The notes under the pieces: generated by a model
Databases searched by the model: none
What the model saw: the letters and a program-made list of their open reading frames with translations, nothing else
Told to the model about the DNA's origin: nothing
Position numbers and translations under genes: made by a program
DNA from: an uncultured Gammaproteobacteria bacterium
GTDB lineage: Bacteria; Patescibacteriota; Microgenomatia; Levybacterales; UBA12049
Length of the DNA: 64,000 bases
Assembly: GCA_964490105.1 (NCBI GenBank)
Contig: CAZAZU010000002.1
Coordinates: 12,751 to 76,750 of the forward strand
Direction of reading: 5' to 3'
Part shown: positions 5,495-57,061 of the stretch, piece by piece
How the letters are laid out: each line of letters begins with the position of its first letter
How positions within the stretch are numbered: the stretch's first letter is position 1

Positions 5495-6583
5495 TTATAA
5501 AACGACTGAATAATTTCCTCCTGAGTTTTTTATAACACCTCTCATTTCCATCATTGATAAGATAGTCCCGACTCTTGACGGATCCAATTTCAAACTCCTG
5601 ACTATTTCATCAAAACTTAAAGACTCATTTTCAATTAATTCCACGATCTTTCGCTCCTCTAAATTCAGACTTTCATACTTTTTCTTGTTTTTCCTTAACT
5701 CATGATTCTTGATTCCTAATTCACGCATTATGTCTTCTGATGTAACTACTAATTTCGCGCCTTTTTCAATTAGTTTAAGCGGCGCGGCTGATAATGAGCT
5801 GGTAATGGGACCTGGAACTGCGAACACTTTTCTGCCAAATTCGAGGCCAAAATTAGCAGTTATCAGGCTTCCGGAATCACTGGCTCCTTCTGTAACGAGT
5901 ATACCGTCACTAATCCCTGCCACTATTCTATTTCTAGCTGGAAAACTTCCAATTGAAGGTTTTTCACCCGGTGGATATTCAGAGATAATTGCTCCGCCTT
6001 CTGAAATAATACGATCGTAAACTTTTTGATTCTCTCTGGGAAAACAAATGTCCACTCCATTTCCCATTACTGCAACTGTAATTCCGTGAGAATCCAAACA
6101 CGCAGTATGCGCTAAAGAATCCACTCCAATTGCAAGTCCAGATACTATTATTAAGCCTTGTTCGGCTAGTTCTCCTGCAAACATTTTAGTAATACTTTTT
6201 CCATAACTCGTGATCTTCCTTGTGCCTACTATGGCCAAAAATTTTTGCTCAGAATTAAGACCCAGTTTTCCTTTTGAGTACAAAATTATTGGAGGATTTT
6301 TTATGGTTTTTAAACGTTTGGGATATGATTTTTCGAATGAACAAATATAGGAAATTTTTTGCTTAGTTAAATTCTCTTCATATCTCTCCATTTCAAAAGT
6401 TTTTCGAAAAACTTCAAACTTAACAGTGAGTTTTTCACCCAGTATTTGTTTTAAAGCCAAACTTGAAGCATTCCAGGCATCTTTTGCAGATCCAAATTCT
6501 CGAATTATTTTTTCAAACTTAATTGGCCCTACTCCTGGAAAATTAGAAAAAGCTAAATAATATTTCTTTTCATTATTTGACAT
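5495..6583 (-). CDS. dprA: DNA processing protein DprA (Smf)
   Basis: Rossmann-like core LAIVGTRKITSYGK...IVSGLAIGVDSLAHTACL...TVAVMGNGVDICFP..GAIISEYPPG. C-terminal winged-helix-like tail. Start taken at the internal Met (MSNNEKKYYLAF), which avoids a 5' overlap. Confidence 0.85.
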   Translation of the reverse strand: MSNNEKKYYLAFSNFPGVGPIKFEKIIREFGSAKDAWNASSLALKQILGEKLTVKFEVFRKTFEMERYEENLTKQKISYICSFEKSYPKRLKTIKNPPIILYSKGKLGLNSEQKFLAIVGTRKITSYGKSITKMFAGELAEQGLIIVSGLAIGVDSLAHTACLDSHGITVAVMGNGVDICFPRENQKVYDRIISEGGAIISEYPPGEKPSIGSFPARNRIVAGISDGILVTEGASDSGSLITANFGLEFGRKVFAVPGPITSSLSAAPLKLIEKGAKLVVTSEDIMRELGIKNHELRKNKKKYESLNLEERKIVELIENESLSFDEIVRSLKLDPSRVGTILSMMEMRGVIKNSGGNYSVVL

Positions 6584-6615
6584 TACTAATCTCAATGTAT
6601 AAAATGCAGGCTCAA

Positions 6616-8247
6616 ATGACAACAACAAAGAAGTTTTTCGGAGTTTTTATTTTTATAATCCTTTTACTAGGTCTTGGAATCTTCACAGCTAAAGCTAATT
6701 CTCAAACCTCAATTGAAAAAGAACCAGAACCAAATTCATACGTAAGTGAAAATATTGAGGATGAAATTAATTATGAACCTGAGCTTGTGCCATTTGAACC
6801 ATCAGGCACCAATAATCCTACTGTATTAGAAAACCAAAAACCCGGAAGCGCTAATTGGAATTTAAAAAACGGAGGATATCAATCTTCAGATGATTCAAAT
6901 AATCAAATAAAAGGTTATGCGAATAAAACAAGTGTTAATAAAGGTGCTTCAATTGATTTTAAGGTAACAGTTAATCCAGCACAGAATTTTACAATGGAAA
7001 TTTATAGAATCGGATGGTACCAAGGCCTCGGAGGACGGCTTATGAAATCCGTAGGACCAATTTCCGGAAAAAAACAACCAGGATGCCCTATGGACTCCAA
7101 AGGAATGGTTGAGTGCAAATGGACTACTTCATATACATTAGATATTCCTAATGATTGGGTATCTGGCGCATACCTTGTAAAACTAATGAACAGTAAAGGC
7201 TACTCTAACTGGATAAATTTTACTCTTAGAGATGACGAAAGAGCTTCTGATATTTTATTTCAAAATTCCGTAAACACTTGGCAAGCATATAACGATTGGG
7301 GTGGCAGAAGTTTTTATACAAATCCGGCTGCTGTAAAAATTTCATTTGATAGACCCTATAAAAAATACGGAACCCGCCTTACCAGCTGGGAACTTAATAT
7401 GATCCATTTCCTGGAAAAAAATGGATATGATGTTACATATAATACAAATGTTGATACTGATAATAGACCTGAAACATTACTAAACCATAAAGCGTTTCTT
7501 TCAGTAGGTCATGATGAATACTGGACATGGGAAATGCGGGATTCTGTAGAAAATGCAATAAAAAATGGAGTAAATGTCGCTTTTTTTGGAGGAAATGATG
7601 CTTATTGGCAGGTTAGATATGAAAAATCTTCAGGAGGTGCGGTAAACCGCGTGCTTGTAGGATACAAATATAAATATCAAAGTGACCCATTTTATTCTTC
7701 AACGGACCCTGAAAAAAGAAGAAGAACAACTGGACAGTTCAGATACTCAGTTTCCGGAAGACCAGAACAAAAAATGATAGGTACCATGTACGGCAGAAAT
7801 CTAGGAACTCATGATAATAATCTTCCTTGGACAGTTCAGAATGAAAATCATTGGATTTATGAAGGTACAGGACTCCGGAATGGAGATAGAATTCCAAATG
7901 TTTACGGATATGAATACAACACAGTCTACTCGGGATATCCAAAAGCTAATGGTGGACAATATACAGTTCTTTCAAAAACTAACAGCTCTCCTGATGCTTA
8001 TTCTACTATTTATAAAGCACCTTCTGGGGCTTTCGTATTCTCAGCAGGTACTACAGACTGGAGCTGGCTACTTGATAAGAGAAAGAATTATAATTTTATA
8101 AATCCGAAAGCGATTGCAATTACAAAAAATATTTTAAATAAATTTGTGGGGATAATTGTAACGCCAACACCTCAACAAACCTTAACTCCAACTCATCCAC
8201 CAACTTTGTCTCCAAGCTTAACCCTTAACCCGATTCCAACGCCATAA
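6616..8247 (+). CDS. secreted hypothetical protein with C-terminal Pro/Thr-rich tail (possible N,N-dimethylformamidase-beta-like family)
   Basis: Signal/anchor FFGVFIFIILLLGLGIFTAKA. The motif FTMEIYRIGWYQGLGGR recalls the Ig-like N-domain of the DUF6605/dimethylformamidase large-subunit family. Tail TPTPQQTLTPTHPPTLSPSLTLNPIPTP. Start chosen at MTTTKK to avoid overlap with dprA. Confidence 0.45.
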   Translation: MTTTKKFFGVFIFIILLLGLGIFTAKANSQTSIEKEPEPNSYVSENIEDEINYEPELVPFEPSGTNNPTVLENQKPGSANWNLKNGGYQSSDDSNNQIKGYANKTSVNKGASIDFKVTVNPAQNFTMEIYRIGWYQGLGGRLMKSVGPISGKKQPGCPMDSKGMVECKWTTSYTLDIPNDWVSGAYLVKLMNSKGYSNWINFTLRDDERASDILFQNSVNTWQAYNDWGGRSFYTNPAAVKISFDRPYKKYGTRLTSWELNMIHFLEKNGYDVTYNTNVDTDNRPETLLNHKAFLSVGHDEYWTWEMRDSVENAIKNGVNVAFFGGNDAYWQVRYEKSSGGAVNRVLVGYKYKYQSDPFYSSTDPEKRRRTTGQFRYSVSGRPEQKMIGTMYGRNLGTHDNNLPWTVQNENHWIYEGTGLRNGDRIPNVYGYEYNTVYSGYPKANGGQYTVLSKTNSSPDAYSTIYKAPSGAFVFSAGTTDWSWLLDKRKNYNFINPKAIAITKNILNKFVGIIVTPTPQQTLTPTHPPTLSPSLTLNPIPTP

Positions 8248-8866: not shown

Positions 8867-10645
8867 CTACTTCTTCGTAAACCATTCTTCTAAAACTTCC
8901 TTAGCGAATGGAGCGGCTTCATTACTTCCCTCTCCTGACTCTTCATTAAGTACTGTTACTACGATTTGAGGATCATAAGCCGGAGCAAAAAGCGTAATCC
9001 ATGCATGTGGAAGTGTTTTTTCGCCTCCATGCTGAGCGGTTCCTGTCTTACATGCGATCACGATTTGACGCATATCAGCCGAGCCTGTTGCAACTTTTAA
9101 AATATTTCTCCCGTCAATTTTTAAATCTGCATTTTTAACTTTAAAATCAAACAATGGATAAGCGACTCCTGTCGGTGCACATGAAGCGATCATACCTTCG
9201 CGAATTGGGTCAATAGTTTTTTCTGAAATAAATTTTTCATTTATTTTTTCTTTTCCTAAATCTTTCAAAAGATATGGTCTATAAAGCGTACCGCCGGCTG
9301 CAATTGCCTGAGCCCAAGAATTTACAGAAAGAGGAGTCGATAATAAATAACCTTGTCCAATTCCATAATGATAAGTATCTCCTAAATACCAAGGCTCCCC
9401 TATATTCTTTCTTTTCCAAGCATCTGTTGGCACAAGTCCCGGATATTCTCCCTCCAGATCAATTCCCAAAACTTTATCTATTCCAAATTCTCTAGCCATT
9501 TTAGATAATCTTTCGTGTCCTATTTTTTCAGCTAATTTATAAAAGAAAATGTCATTTGACCTTGCAATTCCTTTAACTACGTTCACATCCCCATCAGTTC
9601 TTCCATAATTAGTAAAATACCAATTCGCAAATGAAAACTCTCCTATTTTTACAATTCCTGTATCTTTAACAGAATAATTTTTATCAATTATATTTTCTTC
9701 AAGTCCAGCAGCTGCGGTAACGAGTTTAAATGTAGAACCGGGAGGATAAAGACCTGAAATTGCGCGATTCAAAAATGGCTGAGTAGTAGAATCTAATAGA
9801 ACTTCTGTGACTGTTTTATAACTGCTAACTGCTGAAACTTTATAATCTTTTCCCTGAGTAAAAAGGTTTGGATCAAATGAGGGTTTTGAAACCAACGCGA
9901 GAACTTCCCCTTCTGGAGTTGTAGCGATAACTGCTCCTCTTTTTGCTTTACTCATCGCGTTATATGCTCTTTTTTGTAAATCTCGGTCAATTGTTAGAGT
10001 TATGTTTCTCCCTGGTATCGGATCAGTTTCACCTAGTTTTCTTACAATTTGTCCCTGGCTATCAATTTCTGCGAGCTGTTTTCCGTCAACTCCTTTTAAA
10101 AAACTTTCATATTCTCTTTCTATTCCGTTTTTTCCAATAACATCTCCAGATTTATAACCAGCATATTTACTTGTCTTTAGTTCATCTTCAGAAACTTGTC
10201 CTAAATAACCTAGCACATGAACCATGGAATCTTTTTCCGGATAAAGCCTTAATGAGTCAATCTCTAAATTCTTTTCACTCTTTGCAATTAAATCAATTGC
10301 CTCATCTTGCCCAATCAATTTAGTTTTCCCATTCTCTACTTGTCTAAAACCTGGAACGTTAAATACTAATGGCTTCCCGTTACGATCAAATATTACTCCG
10401 CGAGGTGCATGAATAACTAAGGTTTTTATACGATTACTATCTGATAGAGTTCTGTAATAACTTCCCTGAACAACTTGAACGAAGAAAAGTCGTAGTAAAA
10501 CAATTGAAATTGCGATAATTAAAAATACAGGAATTAAATAAAATCTGGCTTCGCGAGGCACTGGGCCGTCATGATAGTTTCCCCGTCTTTTTATTTTTTC
10601 TGTAGAGATGAATTCGCCAAAAATTGGGCCGATTTTTTTGTCCAT
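8867..10645 (-). CDS. mrdA: penicillin-binding protein 2 (peptidoglycan D,D-transpeptidase)
   Basis: N-terminal TM. SxxK (STFK), SxN (SND) and KTG (KTGTAQ) motifs in the correct order. Located immediately downstream of mreBCD. Confidence 0.85.
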   Translation of the reverse strand: MDKKIGPIFGEFISTEKIKRRGNYHDGPVPREARFYLIPVFLIIAISIVLLRLFFVQVVQGSYYRTLSDSNRIKTLVIHAPRGVIFDRNGKPLVFNVPGFRQVENGKTKLIGQDEAIDLIAKSEKNLEIDSLRLYPEKDSMVHVLGYLGQVSEDELKTSKYAGYKSGDVIGKNGIEREYESFLKGVDGKQLAEIDSQGQIVRKLGETDPIPGRNITLTIDRDLQKRAYNAMSKAKRGAVIATTPEGEVLALVSKPSFDPNLFTQGKDYKVSAVSSYKTVTEVLLDSTTQPFLNRAISGLYPPGSTFKLVTAAAGLEENIIDKNYSVKDTGIVKIGEFSFANWYFTNYGRTDGDVNVVKGIARSNDIFFYKLAEKIGHERLSKMAREFGIDKVLGIDLEGEYPGLVPTDAWKRKNIGEPWYLGDTYHYGIGQGYLLSTPLSVNSWAQAIAAGGTLYRPYLLKDLGKEKINEKFISEKTIDPIREGMIASCAPTGVAYPLFDFKVKNADLKIDGRNILKVATGSADMRQIVIACKTGTAQHGGEKTLPHAWITLFAPAYDPQIVVTVLNEESGEGSNEAAPFAKEVLEEWFTKK

Positions 10646-10647
10646 AA

Positions 10648-11061
10648 TTATGCATATTTAGGTACTTTTCTAATTGTCTTTTTGTAAATATAAAATGAAT
10701 TAAAAATTAAAAAAGTCGCAAATAATGATTCCAACATTAGATGGTTAGAACGAGTTAAAAATAAATACGCTAATGATCCTATAAATGCGCTAATTGTAAC
10801 GAAACTTGATGACTCTATTTCAAACTTTTTCTGATAAAGAAAAATCAGCATTACAAATATTACATAAAATCCGCTAGTTAATCCAATTGTCCCAAGAGTT
10901 AAAATATCAAGCAGTAATCCGCTTACAAATGCCAGAATAAAAACATCATTGTTCTTAAGAATTACTGCAGCGAAAATAATTATTAAAAATGTCAGCGGAA
11001 CAGTAATAACAGTAGACTCTAAAATAATAGATGCAAATAGTAGAAGTGCAATTAAATTCAT
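10648..11061 (-). CDS. mreD: rod shape-determining protein MreD
   Basis: 137-aa polytopic membrane protein. Overlaps the stop of mreC, the canonical position. Confidence 0.55.
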   Translation of the reverse strand: MNLIALLLFASIILESTVITVPLTFLIIIFAAVILKNNDVFILAFVSGLLLDILTLGTIGLTSGFYVIFVMLIFLYQKKFEIESSSFVTISAFIGSLAYLFLTRSNHLMLESLFATFLIFNSFYIYKKTIRKVPKYA

Positions 11062-11843
11062 CTTAATATAAATACTGTTTTTAAATTTGTAAAATCTACA
11101 AAACTTTTTACTTTAGCTTTTTGAAATAAATCACTCGATTTTTTTTCGACCGTTATTATTTTCCCCACTATTAAATCTGGCGGATATCCGACACCATTTT
11201 CATCTCTGTCTCCTTTTGTTAAAACCTGATCATCTTTCCTAATTGTCAAAGTAAGAAGCACATTTTCAAAATTCATTTCGTCATTTTGGCCTTTTATTAC
11301 TCCTGTAGCTTCTGCTCCATCCAGCGAGGCCACTTTTGCAGTAAAAGAAGAATTTTTATTATTTAGAAGTTCTACTTTAGAAAAATCGGGCTTTGCATCA
11401 ATTACTTTTCCTACTAGATAGTTCTCGATAATTATCGTACTTCCCTTTTTAACTCCAGAATTTAAGCCTTTATCTAAAATCAAATATTCAGGTAAGCTTT
11501 TTCCTGGAATAAATCCGGGAAATCCTACAACTTTTGCTGGGAGCAACTCCAAACTTTCTGATCCTGATTTTGCAAATTGATCTTTTAGTGCTTTATTTTC
11601 CAGTATCAAATTTTGCCTATCGGATAATTCTTTTTTTAGTTTTGCATTTTCAGAATTTAACTCTTTTATGTTCTTGTTTTGGTAGCCGAAAATATTTATC
11701 GCAGAAGATTTTATAGGAGCTGCTCCTCTATTAATTAAGGAAGCAAATCCATCGAGCACTCCAAATCTTCCAATAAAAATTAGAACCAAACTAATCGTAA
11801 AGAAAACCAAAAAAAATGGGACAAATGAATTTCTATTCTGCAT
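11058..11843 (-). CDS. mreC: rod shape-determining protein MreC
   Basis: N-terminal TM, coiled-coil (LKKELSDRQNLILENKALKDQF), then a beta-rich C-terminal domain. Sits between mreB and mreD. Confidence 0.8.
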   Translation of the reverse strand: MQNRNSFVPFFLVFFTISLVLIFIGRFGVLDGFASLINRGAAPIKSSAINIFGYQNKNIKELNSENAKLKKELSDRQNLILENKALKDQFAKSGSESLELLPAKVVGFPGFIPGKSLPEYLILDKGLNSGVKKGSTIIIENYLVGKVIDAKPDFSKVELLNNKNSSFTAKVASLDGAEATGVIKGQNDEMNFENVLLTLTIRKDDQVLTKGDRDENGVGYPPDLIVGKIITVEKKSSDLFQKAKVKSFVDFTNLKTVFILR

Positions 11844-11887
11844 GAGAATTGCTAATTATAATAGCCTTTTTTAAGAAGTGTTACAAG

Positions 11888-12181
11888 CTACTCCGCGACA
11901 GGGGCTTGCTCTATCAGGTATCTGTCTAAATCTGGCATTTTCGAGATATGATCTACTGCTTTAGCAGCATCCGCCAACGTAGATCCGTCTACTATCAAAA
12001 TCGGCTCAGCTGCAAAATCAGGATTTACTGTTAGTAATGAATCAAAATACCCCTGAGTTCCAGCTGTTAAATCAAATAAAACTCCGCTTCTTTCAACCAT
12101 ATACTCCCGACACACTACTGATCCTTCATGCTCAAGGATTCCTACTTCATTAAATCTTGATCCTTCTATGTTAGTTTTCAT
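11888..12181 (-). CDS. hypothetical protein (GC-rich), inserted between mreB and mreC
   Basis: 97-aa ORF with no motif. Start is 4 nt after the stop of the upstream 176-aa ORF. Confidence 0.35.
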   Translation of the reverse strand: MKTNIEGSRFNEVGILEHEGSVVCREYMVERSGVLFDLTAGTQGYFDSLLTVNPDFAAEPILIVDGSTLADAAKAVDHISKMPDLDRYLIEQAPVAE

Positions 12182-12184
12182 TTT

Positions 12185-12715
12185 TTATCCAACTTTTCTT
12201 CGACCCTTTAAATATTTTTTGTCCTTTATGGTCAGGACGCTAAGCACATCAGCTTGATCCGACTTATCACAAACTGCCACTTTTACAATTACAGGAACAT
12301 CATTTTCTGGCCCAAGTATATCATCCATTCTCATAAAATAAACTCTTTGCCCTCCGGGATTAGCAAAATAATTTATTCTTCTATTGCCCACAGCGTCAAC
12401 TACTCCTCTAACTGCTGGACTGAAACCTGTTTCCGCATACTGAGGAAGCGAAGCATAAAACATATTATCTACGAGCGTACTCCTGTGCTCATCGAGTCTT
12501 TGAGCAGCTCGCAATAATTTCCTACCGCTAACTGCGTGTCCTAAATAAAACTCTCGACCGCCTTGAGGGACGAATTTAGCAAGCGTTATTTGCCTCTGAC
12601 TTTCTAGCCATGGAATTTGTTCAGGCCCAACCTGAGCAGTAAGGCCATGAGAAACCTCACTATATCCTGAAGGAATACCTTTATTTTCAAAATTTCTAGC
12701 AGGAATATCGCTCAC
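12185..12715 (-). CDS. hypothetical protein (GC-rich), inserted between mreB and mreC
   Basis: 176-aa ORF. Its start overlaps the mreB stop by 4 nt (ATGA-type coupling). Confidence 0.4.
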   Translation of the reverse strand: MSDIPARNFENKGIPSGYSEVSHGLTAQVGPEQIPWLESQRQITLAKFVPQGGREFYLGHAVSGRKLLRAAQRLDEHRSTLVDNMFYASLPQYAETGFSPAVRGVVDAVGNRRINYFANPGGQRVYFMRMDDILGPENDVPVIVKVAVCDKSDQADVLSVLTIKDKKYLKGRRKVG

Positions 12716-13800
12716 TTTAATCCTCCGATTACTTTAACTCTATTTAATAATTCTTCGTCTTCGAGAACTTTTCCTGTCCCTCTAACTACTGTCGTAAGCG
12801 GATCTTCTGATCGGATAACTGGTATATGGGTTCTGTCTACTATTAATTTATCCAGTCCGTAAAGCATTGAACCTCCGCCTGTAAGTAAAATTCCATTTTC
12901 CAAAATGTCAGCAGTAAGTTCAGGAGGCGCTTCTTCCAAAACATCAGCCACAGATTCAACTATTTTTGAAATAATAGGAGCAAGTGCTTCTCTTACTTCC
13001 ACCTCTGTAACTCGCAAGCTTTTTGGAAGACCGGTTTCCAAATCTCTACCCCTAACGATAGCAGCTTTTTCTTCATCTTTTTCTTTCTCCTCATCGTCTT
13101 TCTTTTTTTTCTTTGGTCTTTCGTATGCACTACCTAATTTTATCTTTAACTCCTCAACTGTTCTTTCTCCAAGCAAAAGTCCATGCCTTAAACGAATATA
13201 ATGAGTAATTGCTGCGTCCATATCATCACCTGCAGTTTTGAGAGATCTAGAAACCACAATTCCTCCAAGTGAAATTACTGCAATTTCAGTTGTTCCTCCG
13301 CCAATATCTACTACCATCTTTCCAGTCGGCGCAAAAACAGAAATCCCTTCTCCGATAGCTGCCGCCATTGGCTCCTCAATAAGAAAAGCCTCCCTAGCTC
13401 CAGCAGAAAGCGCTGCTTCCCAAACAGCCCGGCGCTGAACTTCAGTTACAGCAGATGGAATCCCTATAACGACACGCGGACGGGAAATTGCTAGAGGTAG
13501 CGAACTCCCTGAACTATGAACATCATGAACAAAACGACTAACCATAGCGCTTGTCGCGTCGAAATCTGAAATTACTCCGCTTCTTAAAGGCTTTACCGTA
13601 ACAATAAGCTCTGGTGTTTTCCCAAGCATTTTTTTTGCTTCACTTCCAAGTGCTATTAATTTTTTTGTTTTTTTGTGAATTGCGATAATTGAAGGCTCTC
13701 TAATTACAATTCCTTTTCCTCTTACCCAAACGAGCGTGTTTGCAGTTCCTAAATCTATTCCAATATCATGGCTAAATAAACTAAAAAGGTTTCTAAACAT
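12712..13800 (-). CDS. mreB: rod shape-determining protein MreB (copy 1, with K/E-rich insertion)
   Basis: IGIDLGTANTLVW phosphate-1 motif and DIGGGTTEIAVISL phosphate-2 motif. ~35-aa low-complexity insert ERPKKKKKDDEEKEKDEEKAAIVRG. Start placed at the internal Met (MFRNLFSLF). Confidence 0.85.
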   Translation of the reverse strand: MFRNLFSLFSHDIGIDLGTANTLVWVRGKGIVIREPSIIAIHKKTKKLIALGSEAKKMLGKTPELIVTVKPLRSGVISDFDATSAMVSRFVHDVHSSGSSLPLAISRPRVVIGIPSAVTEVQRRAVWEAALSAGAREAFLIEEPMAAAIGEGISVFAPTGKMVVDIGGGTTEIAVISLGGIVVSRSLKTAGDDMDAAITHYIRLRHGLLLGERTVEELKIKLGSAYERPKKKKKDDEEKEKDEEKAAIVRGRDLETGLPKSLRVTEVEVREALAPIISKIVESVADVLEEAPPELTADILENGILLTGGGSMLYGLDKLIVDRTHIPVIRSEDPLTTVVRGTGKVLEDEELLNRVKVIGGLK

Positions 13801-13906
13801 AAAAAAACAACTCTCAGCGTGTGTGAGGATTGAAATCCATTCTAGCACCTTGAGGTTATTTTGCAATAACTTACGCGCAATAAATTTAATATTGTTTCCA
13901 GTAAAA

Positions 13907-16261
13907 ATGCCTGATACAATTGTGTTTGTGAAATTTGTAGGCTACGCAACACGCGGAATTGAATTTTTATTTTACTCTCTTTTTCTACTCATCCCGCTAG
14001 TTTTCGCAGGTAACACTTCAGAGCTTTTTGAATTTTCTAAAATGTGGCTCACTTTCGGAATTGCAATTACCATTGGTTTTTTATGGTTTTCAAAAATGAT
14101 CCTTCTAAAAAAATTTATCTTCAAAAGAACTATTTTTGATATCCCGATATTCTTAATTCTTTTTTCTCACTTAGTTTCAACCTTAATTTCTCTAGATCCT
14201 CATATTTCACTCTGGGGATATTACTCCCGCTGGAACGGCGGACTACTATCAATGCTCACATATGCATTTCTGTTCTGGGCCTTTGTAAGTAATTTTAATC
14301 ACGACTCGACAGAAAACCCCACTACAAATCATCTGTCTAGGAAAAGTTTTTTTGATATTCGTCCAGATGCTTTAAGAGTAATCCAAAATTCATTTTTAGT
14401 AAGTCTGATATCTGGATTTATAGTCGTTCTCTGGGCAATTCCTTCACATTTTGGTTATGACCCTACATGCTATGTATTCAGAGGAACACTCGACACAACT
14501 TGCTGGACTGCAGATTTCCAGCCTACTGTCAGAATATTTGGACCACTCGGTCAGCCGGCTTGGCTCGCAGCATACTTAGGCATCTTAATCCCAATTGCCG
14601 GAGCTTTTGCATTGAAAGAACTTAGAAAAACAAAGGAAAAGCTAAACCCGAAATTTCTTGCTTACTCAGGACTATTTATACTATTTTATATAGCCCTTCT
14701 TTATTCAGGGTCCAGAGGAGGAATAATAGGTGTTTTCATTTCGCTTCTATCCATGACAATTTCTTATCTTTACTTTAACAGGCACGATCTAAGTTTCTTA
14801 AAAAATAAATTAATTCCAATTTTTATAGCTTCCATTATAATCGTAACGCCATTCGCAGGAATTGATTTGCCAAATGGAACTAAAGTTACATATGATGTTT
14901 TACTTAAGCAATTTAAAAAAGACGCACCGCCCCCACCCATAACACCCGGACAAACACCTACAACATCTGCAGCTGCAACCGAAGAGACTCCAAATCCTGC
15001 AATTCCACTAGGAGGATCTTCATCAGCTGAGATTCGATCAATTGTTTGGAAAGGCGGAATTGCAGCGTGGAAAGCAAATCCTATTTTCGGGACAGGAGTT
15101 GAAACTTATGCTTTTGCATACTACAAACATAGGCCTGAAGAACATAACAGAGTGTCTGAATGGAACTTCTTATATAACAAAGCTCATAACGAATACATCA
15201 ACTATCTAGTTACTACTGGAGCTTTCGGATTCCTTTCTTATGCTGCTTTCATTGGTCTTTTCTTTATCGCATCTGGACTTAGCTTATTAAATATAAAAGT
15301 AAGAACAATTCCATATTTAGGAAATTTTTCATCTAGCGTTAAGTGGGATCACAAGGATCCGATCGTACTCGCGCTTATCGCCTCTATTATTTCCATGCTA
15401 ATCGTAAACTTTTTCGGTTTTTCAGTCGTAATTACAAATATTTATTTATTCTTAATACCGGCATTTATTCTATTTCTTTTGAAACTAGTTCCAGATTTTA
15501 AAGAACCTCCTCTTCCTAAAATCCCATATGTCTCTTACTCTCAGTGGAGTGCAGTAATAGGACTTGGTGCACTAGCTACATTTTTAATTTTTATGCTTGT
15601 CAGATTCTGGGTGGCTGACACCAAATATGCATTAGGCTTTAACTATAATCAGGCTGGGGATTTTCAAACGGCGTATCCCTTACTGCAATCTGCGATAAAA
15701 ATGAGAAAAGAACCTGTTTTCTTAAATGAAATAGCTATAAATGACGCAAATCTTGCAACAAGTCTTGCGACACAAAACGGCAGTGAGTCAGCGCAAATTA
15801 TTCAGCAATTAGCTACAGAATCTCTAACAACTTCTGAAAAATTAATTAAAGACCATCCAAATAATGTAGTCTTCTGGAAAACTAGAGTTAGAGTTCTTTA
15901 TACTCTAGCCCGCCTTGACCCTTCATTTTATCCACAGGCTTTAGCAGCTATTCAGCAAACAGCTCTTCTTGCTCCAACTGATGCAAGTATTCTCTATAAC
16001 TTGGGAGTTTTGTATGGACAAAATGGAGATTCTAAAAAGGCTGTAGAAATTCTGGAGCAAACAGTCAAATATAGACCCCAATATTCTGAAGCCCATTTCG
16101 CGCTTGGTCTTTTCTATCATGACTTAGGTGTTGACCAAAATGGAGCAGTAAAAGATGAAACATATCGCCAAAAAGCGATTGCTGAAATGGATTATATACT
16201 AAAAAATCTTAACCCAAATGATTCTCAAGCTAAAGCCTACTACGACGAATGGCAGAAGTAG
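13907..16261 (+). CDS. O-antigen-ligase (Wzy_C)-like polytopic membrane protein fused to C-terminal TPR repeats
   Basis: Many TM helices. Wzy_C-type loop WKGGIAAWKANPIFGTGVETYAFAY..H.R..EWNFLYNKAHNEYINYLVTTG. C-terminal TPR-like repeats (ILYNLGVLYGQNGDSKKAVEILEQTVKYRPQYSEAHFALGLFY). Start chosen at the Met at 13907 to avoid overlap with mreB. Confidence 0.55.
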   Translation: MPDTIVFVKFVGYATRGIEFLFYSLFLLIPLVFAGNTSELFEFSKMWLTFGIAITIGFLWFSKMILLKKFIFKRTIFDIPIFLILFSHLVSTLISLDPHISLWGYYSRWNGGLLSMLTYAFLFWAFVSNFNHDSTENPTTNHLSRKSFFDIRPDALRVIQNSFLVSLISGFIVVLWAIPSHFGYDPTCYVFRGTLDTTCWTADFQPTVRIFGPLGQPAWLAAYLGILIPIAGAFALKELRKTKEKLNPKFLAYSGLFILFYIALLYSGSRGGIIGVFISLLSMTISYLYFNRHDLSFLKNKLIPIFIASIIIVTPFAGIDLPNGTKVTYDVLLKQFKKDAPPPPITPGQTPTTSAAATEETPNPAIPLGGSSSAEIRSIVWKGGIAAWKANPIFGTGVETYAFAYYKHRPEEHNRVSEWNFLYNKAHNEYINYLVTTGAFGFLSYAAFIGLFFIASGLSLLNIKVRTIPYLGNFSSSVKWDHKDPIVLALIASIISMLIVNFFGFSVVITNIYLFLIPAFILFLLKLVPDFKEPPLPKIPYVSYSQWSAVIGLGALATFLIFMLVRFWVADTKYALGFNYNQAGDFQTAYPLLQSAIKMRKEPVFLNEIAINDANLATSLATQNGSESAQIIQQLATESLTTSEKLIKDHPNNVVFWKTRVRVLYTLARLDPSFYPQALAAIQQTALLAPTDASILYNLGVLYGQNGDSKKAVEILEQTVKYRPQYSEAHFALGLFYHDLGVDQNGAVKDETYRQKAIAEMDYILKNLNPNDSQAKAYYDEWQK

Positions 16262-30419: not shown

Positions 30420-30491
30420 GCCGTCTTAGCTCAGTGGTAGAGCAGCTGTTTTGTAAACAGCAGGTCGTGGGTTCAAATCCGACAGACGGCT
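30420..30491 (+). tRNA. tRNA-Thr (anticodon TGT)
   Basis: Cloverleaf folds by hand: acceptor gccgtct/agacggc, D-arm gctc-agtggta-gagc, anticodon stem gctgt/acagc with loop tttgtaa, T-loop ttcaaat. One G-G mismatch in the T-stem. CCA not encoded. Confidence 0.75.
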
Positions 30492-30781
30492 CAGCGTCCA
30501 ATCAAGATTAAATCCGTTCCATCTTTTGCTTTGCAAAAGATTTAACACTATAATCTGATTCTCCTTTCTCAAAATTGCTTTGCAATTTTGAAATCAATTA
30601 GCCCGCTGGCTAATTGAAGAGGAGCGAACGGCGAAAAATCGAAGTCCGCCAGATGGCGGACGAAGATCCGAGACGGAATCGCGACGAGCTGAGTTGGCGG
30701 AGCAGTCAATCGCACCTGACTGTAGATCAGGTGCCCGAAAGGGCTACAGGAGTGCAAATCTCTTACTCAGCACAACACCAA

Positions 30782-30853
30782 GCCGATTTGGCTCAGTGGT
30801 AGAGCAAGTCATTGGTAATGACTAGATCGTGGGTTCGATTCCCACAATCGGCT
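30782..30853 (+). tRNA. tRNA-Thr (anticodon GGT)
   Basis: Acceptor gccgatt/aatcggc, D-arm gctc-agtggta-gagc, anticodon stem agtca/tgact with loop ttggtaa, T-arm gtggg-ttcgatt-cccac. All stems perfect. Confidence 0.85.
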
Positions 30854-30866
30854 CACCTACTCTTTG

Positions 30867-30895
30867 ATTTTAAGCATAATTTTAGTTATAATTGT
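30867..30895 (+). promoter_or_regulatory. sigma70-like promoter TTGATT-17-TATAAT upstream of rpmG
   Basis: ttgattttaagcataattttagttataat, ~10 nt before the rpmG ATG. Confidence 0.4.
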
Positions 30896-30903
30896 AACCT
30901 CAT

Positions 30904-31077
30904 ATGGCAAAAGGTGAACACAGACAGAATTTTGGATTAAAATGCAGCGTTTGCAAGAACGTTAATTACATCACGCAAAGAAATAAAATTAACACTGAAA
31001 GCAAACTTTTACTTAAGAAGTTCTGTAAGAAATGCAGAAAAGTTACAGATCATAAAGAAATCGAAAAACTTAAGTAA
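30904..31077 (+). CDS. rpmG: 50S ribosomal protein L33
   Basis: 57-aa ORF MAKGEHRQNFGLKCSVCKNVNYITQRNKINTESKLLLKKFCKKCRKVTDHKEIEKLK with two C..C pairs and the L33 pattern. Below the 60-aa cut-off of the supplied ORF track. Canonical position before tRNA-Trp and secE. Confidence 0.8.
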   Translation: MAKGEHRQNFGLKCSVCKNVNYITQRNKINTESKLLLKKFCKKCRKVTDHKEIEKLK

Positions 31078-31151
31078 TTCCCCTCTTTTCATTTGATTAA
31101 AGCCCAGTCCCAAAGTATAATAGTGCCAGGGTTTAACCCTGAGCGAAACGA

Positions 31152-31223
31152 AGGGATGTGGTGAAACGGCTATCACAGCAGTCTCCAAAACTGCTTTTCT
31201 CAGTTCGAATCTGAGCATCCCTG
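31152..31223 (+). tRNA. tRNA-Trp (anticodon CCA)
   Basis: Acceptor agggatg/catccct, anticodon stem gcagt/actgc with loop ctccaaa, T-arm tcag-ttcgaat-ctga. Canonical rpmG-tRNATrp-secE neighbourhood. Confidence 0.8.
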
Positions 31224-56987: not shown

Positions 56988-57061
56988 CGTCCCCGAGAGG
57001 AGTTGAACCTCCAATCTTTCCCTTAGGACGGGACTGCTCTATCCAATTGAGCTACGGGAAC
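56988..57061 (-). tRNA. tRNA-Arg (anticodon CCT)
   Basis: Reverse complement folds by hand: acceptor gttcccg/cggggac (one G-U), D-arm gctc-aattggata-gagc, anticodon loop gtcctaa, T-arm ggagg-ttcaact-cctct. Confidence 0.65.

Follow-up and report, generated by a model that had tools for sequence, protein, structure and literature searches.

Why do two genes that match no recognized family lie between mreB and mreC, within a run of cell-shape genes? The question is raised by a 64,000-nucleotide stretch of DNA, referred to here as the window, which was taken from contig CAZAZU010000002.1 of a bacterial genome assembly (GCA_964490105.1) placed in the Levybacterales. A sequence-only reading of the window had described the pair as two genes rich in guanine and cytosine (GC) inserted into a normally uninterrupted unit, where they would act either as accessory factors of the rod complex or as a selfish module hitch-hiking in an essential operon. 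The two genes are referred to here as X, an open reading frame (ORF) of 176 amino acids (aa), and Y, an ORF of 97 aa. It is firmly established that X and Y form a conserved, translationally coupled, and portable two-gene cassette of the ultra-small bacteria of the Candidate Phyla Radiation (CPR), which has been fixed after mreB in one Levybacteria clade. The explanation of the cassette ranked first, tentatively and at somewhat less than an even chance, is that X and Y are a new RelE/BECR-like toxin and immunity-type pair, co-expressed with mreB. In the literature, no account was found of the X and Y families, nor of any CPR genome with genes at this place between mreB and mreC.

The Locus and Its Coupling to mreB

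The whole run, in the order mreB-X-Y-mreC-mreD-PBP2, lies on the minus strand, and is made up of the following features, given here with the evidence for each:

12712-13866, minus strand: mreB, with a match to Pfam MreB_Mbl (E=3e-127); the ORF as listed begins at the TTG at 13866
12185-12715, minus strand: X, which encodes a basic protein of 176 aa and has a GTG start (homolog family, AlphaFold model, and substitution rates)
11888-12181, minus strand: Y, which encodes a strongly acidic protein of 97 aa, the downstream partner of X (homolog family and AlphaFold model)
11844-11887, minus strand: the 44-nt spacer between Y and mreC (alignment of five genomes and consensus promoter scan)
11058-11843, minus strand: mreC, with a match to Pfam MreC (E=4e-29)
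10648-11061, minus strand: mreD, with a weak match to Pfam MreD (E=5e-4, under the gathering score), its place and size being kept in the relatives
8867-10645, minus strand: a PBP2-type transpeptidase gene, with PBP_dimer and Transpeptidase domains in the orthologs of the relatives L001 and L002 (90-92% identity with the protein of the window)

The GTG start codon of X (12715-12713) overlaps the TGA stop codon of mreB (12714-12712), which forms the 4-nt GTGA overlap that the sequence-only reading had described, and a Shine-Dalgarno (SD) sequence, GGAGGA, is found at 12726-12721, within the last codons of mreB and five bases 5' of the X start. In four relatives, this junction takes the form of an ATGA overlap with the SD sequence retained, and the combination of overlap and SD is thus present in five genomes. 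Y follows close behind X, as had also been described, with a measured gap of 3 nt (AAA) between the stop codon of X and the start codon of Y. A scan for promoters and terminators revealed no terminator-like site on the minus strand between mreB and mreC. Given the conservation of the start/stop overlap and the SD sequence in five genomes, together with the absence of a terminator-like site from mreB to mreC, the sequence supports the co-expression of X and Y with mreB, which the tight coupling had suggested in the earlier reading.

The true start of mreB itself is probably the ATG at 13800 rather than the TTG at 13866, which would give MFRNLFSLFSHD, given that the MreB proteins of the relatives begin MLRSLFSLFSHD. 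A Lys/Glu-rich low-complexity insert in MreB, KKKKKDDEEKEKDEEK (around 13100-13210), is the most variable stretch of mreB among the relatives.

At the other end of the cassette, the spacer between Y and mreC is almost invariant in five genomes, despite the saturation of the synonymous sites in the neighboring genes. The spacer contains promoter-like hexamers (TTGTAA-17-TATTAT and GTAACA-18-TATAAT; consensus scan, 10/12 match), and the -10 element ends 11 nt 5' of the ATG of mreC, with no SD sequence present. The total number of sites in the scan of the region was not above that of shuffled sequence, and the identification of a promoter thus draws mainly on conservation. These features suggest that the spacer is probably the promoter of mreC-mreD-PBP2, with a very short leader and a near-leaderless transcript. 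With a separate promoter for mreC, the mreB transcription unit would end with the cassette, which would then not split an indivisible operon in two.

X and Y as Gene Families

Neither protein matches a domain in Pfam, NCBIfam, PADLOC, or PHROGs, in agreement with the sequence-only reading, which had recognized no domain in either ORF. A Pfam scan of 74 relatives of X at E<=5 returned scattered noise with no recurring family, and searches of the PDB with sequence profiles of X and Y produced only noise, that of X containing no toxin at all.

Homologs of X were recovered by a single-sequence search (20), a profile search (95), and an exhaustive hidden Markov model (HMM) search among 1.84 billion representatives (181 clusters at 50% identity, E<=1e-3), while a profile search for Y recovered 24 proteins. 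In four genomes of the mre-linked clade, the ratio of nonsynonymous to synonymous substitution rates (dN/dS) is 0.09-0.16 for X and 0.12-0.37 for Y, in comparison with 0.04-0.05 for MreB and 0.16-0.25 for MreD. The many homologs, the low dN/dS, and the confident AlphaFold models described below indicate that X and Y are real genes, rather than chance ORFs. The cassette is restricted to the CPR (Patescibacteria), with members of the family in Levybacteria, Daviesbacteria, and Saccharibacteria-type genomes. The genome of the window is itself that of a Candidatus Levybacteria (Microgenomates), given that the 90%-identity cluster of its MreC includes a protein which NCBI assigns to this taxon.

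The charges of the two proteins are complementary. The X protein of the window has an isoelectric point (pI) of 9.4, and the X family has a median pI of 9.3 and a net charge of +5, whereas the Y protein of the window has a pI of about 4.4 and a charge of -10, with a median pI of 4.3 and a net charge of -12 in its family. The pairing is also consistent, given that a search with the Y HMM found a homolog of Y directly 3' of X in every locus examined except one (L010), mostly with a 4-nt stop/start overlap. The Saccharibacteria-type partners of X are very divergent (E ~1e-5), and keep the motif LFSLxV.T, a C-terminal YLVxQ, and their acidity. The Y proteins have a conserved C-terminal motif, (P)YL(I/V)EQ, which is followed by an acidic tail.

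In X, three residues (W36, R124, and K151) are invariant across 74 family members, and a further 16 (P15, P35, L37, F56, L67, A70, A71, N119, G121, G122, Q123, V125, F127, C149, D150, and V157) are nearly so. There are also longer homologs, of 250-500 aa, in which the X domain is C-terminal and the N-terminal extensions, which have no Pfam match, are charged and look to be of low complexity.

Genomic Distribution of the Cassette

The order mreB-X-Y-mreC-mreD-PBP2 was found in all six distinct close sequences recovered, that is, the window (= L021), L001, L002 (= L008), L007, L011, and L013, in which X is at least 71% identical and MreB 89-92% identical. The synonymous sites are saturated between the window and these mre-linked relatives (dS >1.2), which implies that the mreB-X-Y-mreC arrangement is old. 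The sequence-only reading had allowed that the general presence of the pair between mreB and mreC, with ordinary composition, would mark a feature of the lineage rather than an insertion, and this is the pattern seen within this Levybacteria clade, in which the order is the same in all the close relatives recovered.

A search for homologs beside mreB elsewhere, which had been proposed in the same reading, revealed the mre linkage only in the one clade in which X is at least 70% identical. At the distant X loci (33-47% identity), neither tblastn nor the gene tables revealed MreB, MreC, MreD, or PBP2, with the longer loci spanning 5-6 kb on each side. The distant X loci, with approximately a dozen X-Y pairs, lie outside mre, in the following contexts:

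L003: dus, divergently transcribed
L004: a run of unknown genes beside HicA
L005 and L020: cysS and recR
L009, L016, L026, and L027: a PMT_2 glycosyltransferase gene and glpX, with VapBC pairs nearby
L022, L023, and L015: a purF-like gene on the 5' side and mraZ-rsmH-ftsL-ftsI on the 3' side
L024 and L025: tsaD-murE on the 5' side, with the cassette 53-70 nt past murE on the same strand, and the X proteins of the two genomes more than 45% diverged
L030-L032: divIC two genes off, with a Ser/Thr kinase gene and dus nearby
L012: an island of a Saccharibacteria genome, carrying VapBC and two modules of the YafQ type
L010: Daviesbacteria, with Phd/ParE-type genes and FtsH adjoining

Even where the X proteins share at least 55% identity with one another, the pair is found in at least four contexts (hicA, cysS/recR, PMT glycosyltransferase/glpX, and purF/mraZ). 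Several of the X-Y loci are islands rich in toxin-antitoxin genes, which include VapBC, HicA, YafQ/ParE-type, and Phd/YefM modules. No repeats or target-site duplications were found flanking the cassette, and the X-Y pair of the window has no upstream intergenic region at all.

Two of the distant loci have peculiarities of their own. An insertion sequence (IS)-type transposase gene (rve integrase plus HTH_38; L032:1222-2250) lies directly 3' of Y in L032, and is absent from the otherwise collinear L030 and L031. In L010, the gene that follows X encodes an FtsH containing an intein.

Base Composition and Mosaic History

The GC content of X (0.414) and Y (0.408) is close to that of mreB (0.401), and higher than that of mreC (0.316), mreD (0.271), and the window as a whole (0.372), lying approximately 1 standard deviation over the mean of the genes of the window. 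At the third codon position (GC3), the values are 0.27 for X and 0.31 for Y, compared with a mean of 0.263 +/- 0.033 for the 49 long ORFs of the window. The statement that both genes have a higher GC content than the flanking mre genes is thus correct with respect to mreC and mreD, but not to mreB, and the GC3 is ordinary. The ordinary GC3 and the mreB-like GC content of the two genes provide no sign of recent transfer.

These values bear directly on the idea of a recent, compositionally foreign horizontal insertion that breaks the mreBCD operon, the form taken here by the GC-rich insertion of the sequence-only reading. The difference between the GC content of X and Y (0.41) and that of mreC and mreD (0.27-0.32) would fit an event of this kind, as would the homologs at other loci in other lineages, but the agreement with mreB (0.40), the ordinary GC3, the identical gene order in six distinct relatives with saturated synonymous sites, the lack of flanking repeats, and the lack of matches on phages, plasmids, and viral contigs all argue against it, and such an event is highly improbable and essentially excluded. 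What survives of the insertion is a self-contained cassette with distant relatives at other loci, which is neither recent nor compositionally foreign.

The cassette has diverged far more than its surroundings. Between L001 and L002, the flanking proteins are 96% (MreB), 91% (MreC), 88% (MreD), and 96% (PBP2) identical, with a dS of 0.43-0.64, whereas X is 72% identical (dS 1.14) and Y only 49% (dS 1.29). In a sliding-window comparison of the same two loci (X and Y at loci coordinates 6001-6850), nucleotide identity is approximately 0.9 in mreB and drops to 0.52-0.57 in a region that takes in the 3' end of X and most of Y, with a sharp rebound, to 0.84-0.89, in the final codons of Y.

The two genes also group in different ways. 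The X of the window groups with that of L001 (82% identity), and its Y with that of L002 (74% identity), with L001 as the outlier, at 48-49%, and the trees of X and Y conflict both with each other and with those of the flanking genes. This disagreement points to a mosaic history, and indicates the exchange of alleles or recombination within the cassette. The cassette thus has a mosaic history of its own, through recombination and/or rapid divergence, while still being under overall purifying selection. A pattern of divergence of this type is commonly seen in conflict-type or polymorphic loci.

Predicted Structures and Structural Neighbors

The AlphaFold (AF2) models have a predicted local distance difference test (pLDDT) score of 91.5 and a predicted template modeling (pTM) score of 0.87 for X, and 89.5 and 0.79, respectively, for Y. 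In the X model, the N-terminal part consists of a helix (residues 5-12) and a long β-hairpin (18-29 and 41-50; extension 18-50), which is followed by a core (56-161) in which DSSP assigns β56-60, α65-72, α76-96, β115-118, β123-129, β142-150, and α151-161, and the last element is a helix (166-175). The topology of RelE has been described as β-α-α-β-β-β-α (PMC11980606). The core of X has the same order of elements, which gives the model the topology of the RelE/ParE (BECR) fold.

When the PDB was searched with the X model in Foldseek, the only compact matches in the top 50 were toxins of the RelE superfamily (5/50), all of them sub-threshold, with a root-mean-square deviation (rmsd) of 3.9-4.6 Å over 95-105 columns and a target-normalized template modeling (TM) score of 0.55-0.62:

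9lew_B: YafQ, probability 0.69, target TM 0.55, rmsd 4.2 Å
4mmj: YafQ, probability 0.35, target TM 0.55, rmsd 4.2 Å
6n90: YoeB/ParE toxin, probability 0.41, target TM 0.62, rmsd 3.9 Å
7v6w and 7v5y: YoeB, probability 0.28-0.30, target TM 0.57-0.58, rmsd 4.4-4.6 Å

Among the viral models of BFVD, X matched two unnamed phage proteins of 127 aa (probability 0.99 and 0.91), and also a phage "site-specific RNA endonuclease" (RegB-like; probability 0.38), which is suggestive only.

Two motifs of X, N-x-G-G-Q-R-V-Y-F and V-A-V-C-D-K, are located at the β2/β3 turn and β3 start, and at the end of β4. The two motifs would be expected to lie side by side, because β3 and β4 are neighbors in a RelE-type topology, an expectation that comes from the topology and not from the coordinates of the model. 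The RelE residues R61 and R81 are found in the region of the β3 start and the β4 end, and their equivalence to the residues of X is one of topology only, with no superposition.

In its model, Y begins with a β-meander of three strands and continues with short helices. In Foldseek, Y returned only weak matches resembling the double-stranded RNA-binding domain, or incoherent matches, with no informative neighbor, and the closest solved folds are not DNA-binding domains.

A Possible Toxin and Immunity-Type Pair

A toxin and immunity-type pair is ranked first because of the complementary charges, the predicted fold and its structural neighbors, a polar cluster in X, the pairing of the two genes at variable loci, and the fast, mosaic divergence of Y. 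Under this hypothesis, the cassette would have landed right after mreB, 5' of the apparent mreC promoter, in the ancestor of one Levybacteria clade, and would have been inherited in place since then, with X and Y being transcribed from the mreB promoter and read from the mreB transcript by means of the stop/start overlap. X would be a divergent and enlarged member of the RelE/ParE (BECR-fold) class, that is, a small, basic, RNA-targeting toxin with RNase activity, in which N119, Q123, R124, C149, D150, and K151 would form a polar cluster where RelE has its active site (the β2 end, β3 start, and β4 end). Y, folded and highly acidic, would be the inhibitor of X and would neutralize its toxicity by masking its basic face, much as barstar or an immunity protein does, and would not work as a DNA-binding type II antitoxin. 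The charge, the lead provided by the fold, the portability, and the fast, mosaic evolution lean toward a toxin/antidote-like module of this type, and the limited distribution of X (181 clusters) was also counted in its favor. As in the type II toxin-antitoxin systems, two adjacent small genes are kept as a pair (in all loci but one).

With the BECR-fold type II toxins (RelE, YoeB, YafQ, and HigB), X shares the condition of a basic cytoplasmic protein in a coupled two-gene module, and the toxin-first order of the genes is that of higBA. The RelE-type toxins, the only compact structural neighbors of X, also share its predicted core topology, and, in terms of topology, R61 and R81 of RelE fall where X has its conserved Arg, Lys, and polar residues (the β3 start and the β4 end). 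X differs from them in having no detectable sequence or profile similarity, and in its length of approximately 170 aa, in contrast with 85-100 aa. Its N-terminal part adds a helix and a β-hairpin, which bears the invariant Trp. The module also differs from those of the RelE type in that Y is folded and acidic, without a ribbon-helix-helix, helix-turn-helix, AbrB, or Phd domain, and in that X-Y is stably inherited at housekeeping loci.

A second parallel is found in barnase-barstar and the RNase-immunity pairs of the polymorphic toxins, in which a basic, BECR-type domain is likewise followed by a small, folded, and very acidic protein. The fast, mosaic divergence of the immunity-like gene Y also recalls the polymorphic-toxin immunity pairs, as does the C-terminal position of the X domain in some proteins of 250-500 aa. 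In contrast with the polymorphic toxins, however, X has no signal peptide, secretion domain, or trafficking domain, there are no type V, VI, or VII secretion genes near X-Y, and the fold of Y matches neither barstar nor any solved immunity protein.

A number of results weigh against a toxin and its antidote. The Foldseek search of the PDB with the X model produced no significant match. Neither X nor its 74 relatives (at E<=5) matched any of 13 Pfam families of BECR toxins (RelE, ParE, YoeB, HigB, YafQ, MqsR, BrnT, Gp49, and others; PMC11980606), and hhalign gave a probability of 0.1% when the profile of X, whole or reduced to the C-terminal core, was compared with a RelE/YafQ/YoeB/ParE mini-profile of eight sequences, drawn from E. 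coli K-12 genes and Pfam-verified CPR toxins. A relaxed hhalign run placed GGQRVYF over the GYRLVY strand of RelE, with no statistical support. X is twice the size of a canonical RelE toxin, and Y, which has no Pfam or NCBIfam domain, is not the DNA-binding, autoregulating antitoxin of a type II system, nor do the upstream regions of the free-standing cassettes have an operator-like inverted repeat or palindrome in common. With the toxin gene first and the stop/start coupling, an excess of the antidote is not guaranteed.

The distribution of the pair provides further points of this kind. No homologs of X-Y were found in the phage, plasmid, and IMG/VR collections, and in several clades (mre, murE, and mraZ) the cassette has kept its place while synonymous divergence reached saturation. 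In three of approximately 12 contexts (mreB/mreC, murE, and mraZ-ftsL-ftsI), the immediate neighbor of the cassette is a cell-wall or division gene. In L010 (Candidatus Daviesbacteria, L010:5746-8014), finally, X has an N-terminal extension of 80 aa, keeps its conserved motifs, and is not followed by a Y.

If X does prove to be a true BECR-fold toxin, it would represent a new family that goes undetected by the HMM libraries of Pfam, NCBIfam, PADLOC, and PHROGs. Such a family would be CPR-specific, and of unusual architecture, in that its toxin would be of double size and encoded first, and its antidote folded, acidic, and without a DNA-binding domain. Its fixation in an essential cell-shape locus would show how modules of this type hitch-hike on core operons, or are domesticated by them, in minimal genomes. 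The X-Y pair is conserved, invisible to present annotation, and open to direct testing by heterologous expression.

Alternative Explanations

Some of the same results can be read in favor of a role in the cell envelope. The main rival explanation, which is unlikely, if far from negligible, is that X and Y serve the cell-envelope machinery (the elongasome or divisome) as an accessory pair, cytoplasmic and specific to the CPR, in which X would have the RelE fold, would have lost its nuclease activity, and would bind MreB/FtsZ-type filaments or an enzyme of peptidoglycan-precursor synthesis, with Y as an acidic regulator and the stop/start coupling fixing the stoichiometry with MreB. The precedent is CbeA (YeeU), of the type IV toxin-antitoxin pair CbeA/CbtA of E. 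coli, which has a YoeB/RelE-like fold and stabilizes the polymers of MreB and FtsZ (PMC5086665). The likeness lies in a fold of this class being linked to MreB and FtsZ, with X coupled to mreB and its kin flanking genes of the division and cell wall (dcw) cluster. Unlike CbeA, X has no match to the YagB/YeeU/YfjZ family (PF06154) and no CbtA-like partner, and the CbeA/YeeU structures 2H28 and 2INW were outside the Foldseek top 50 for X. CbeA is an antitoxin, encoded first in a prophage-borne pair, whereas X, also encoded first, is the larger member of its own. The direct neighbors of the cassette include three different cell-wall or division genes, in arrangements unrelated to one another (mreB/mreC, murE, and mraZ-rsmH-ftsL-ftsI), and in a fourth context divIC is two genes off, with a Ser/Thr kinase gene nearby. 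Based on assumed gene counts, a rough binomial calculation gives p ~0.03 for at least three of 12 contexts against a background of 6%, and of the five or six cases in which a gene on the same strand closely precedes X, there are two in which that gene is mreB or murE. The stable position, the strong purifying selection on X, a stop/start coupling suited to an equimolar complex, and the presence of X without Y in L010 are all consistent with this role. Most members of the family are not located beside mre or dcw genes, however, and the linkage with mreB/mreC is confined to one clade of the X family. The genomes of the CPR consist largely of housekeeping genes, which makes chance adjacency easy, the cassette is always at the edges of operons, and tRNA and translation genes (dus, cysS, valS, tsaD, and trpS) are neighbors about as often, for which reason the enrichment of cell-wall neighbors is only suggestive. 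Evolution as fast and mosaic as that of Y, and X and Y trees that are incongruent, would be unusual in a housekeeping accessory, the 181 clusters are a narrow spread for a core divisome factor, and neither X nor Y matches a known MreB-associated family in Pfam or NCBIfam, nor does Pfam link them to CbeA (PF06154), RodZ, or another known partner. It is quite improbable that X-Y is an unrecognized, CPR-specific module of the cell wall or cytoskeleton, in which X, as a domesticated, toxin-fold regulator of the elongasome or divisome, would be made in a fixed ratio with MreB through the stop/start coupling and would bind MreB/FtsZ-type filaments or peptidoglycan-precursor enzymes (MurE), with Y as a fast-evolving acidic regulator. 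The cell biology of the CPR bacteria is not yet open to study in culture, and a tie to MreB, MurE, or dcw would make the pair one of the first lineage-specific regulators of the cell envelope to be proposed for them.

In a different explanation, X and Y would be a non-toxic regulatory pair associated with RNA or the ribosome, in which an acidic partner would restrain a basic RNA-binding protein, with no specific link to cell shape, and the location beside mreB would be an accident of rearrangement. A pair with one basic and one acidic member would suit this role, as would the frequency of tRNA and translation genes among the neighbors and the RelE-like fold, which is a scaffold for binding RNA and the ribosome, together with the stable vertical inheritance, the low dN/dS, and, once again, the X without Y in L010. 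The rapid, mosaic divergence of Y, the occurrence of the pair in toxin-antitoxin islands, its narrow phyletic spread, and the lack of similarity to known RNA-binding families all argue the other way, and leave a regulatory pair of this type a doubtful explanation.

Other Features of the Window and Its Relatives

A large membrane protein gene with Wzy_C (O-antigen ligase-like) and TPR domains is located at 13736-16261 on the plus strand, divergent from mreB, with an ORF start that overlaps the 5' end of mreB. This start is probably placed too far upstream, given that the orthologs have 816-818 aa. No rRNA or other Rfam families were found within the window besides the tRNA genes, which include a cluster of four at 30420-31223 (plus strand) and one more at 56988-57061 (minus strand). 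Among the relatives, the public titles of the metagenome-assembled genomes of L007, L008, L009, and L011 ("uncultured Gammaproteobacteria bacterium") look like mislabels, given that the 90% cluster of MreC points to Candidatus Levybacteria.

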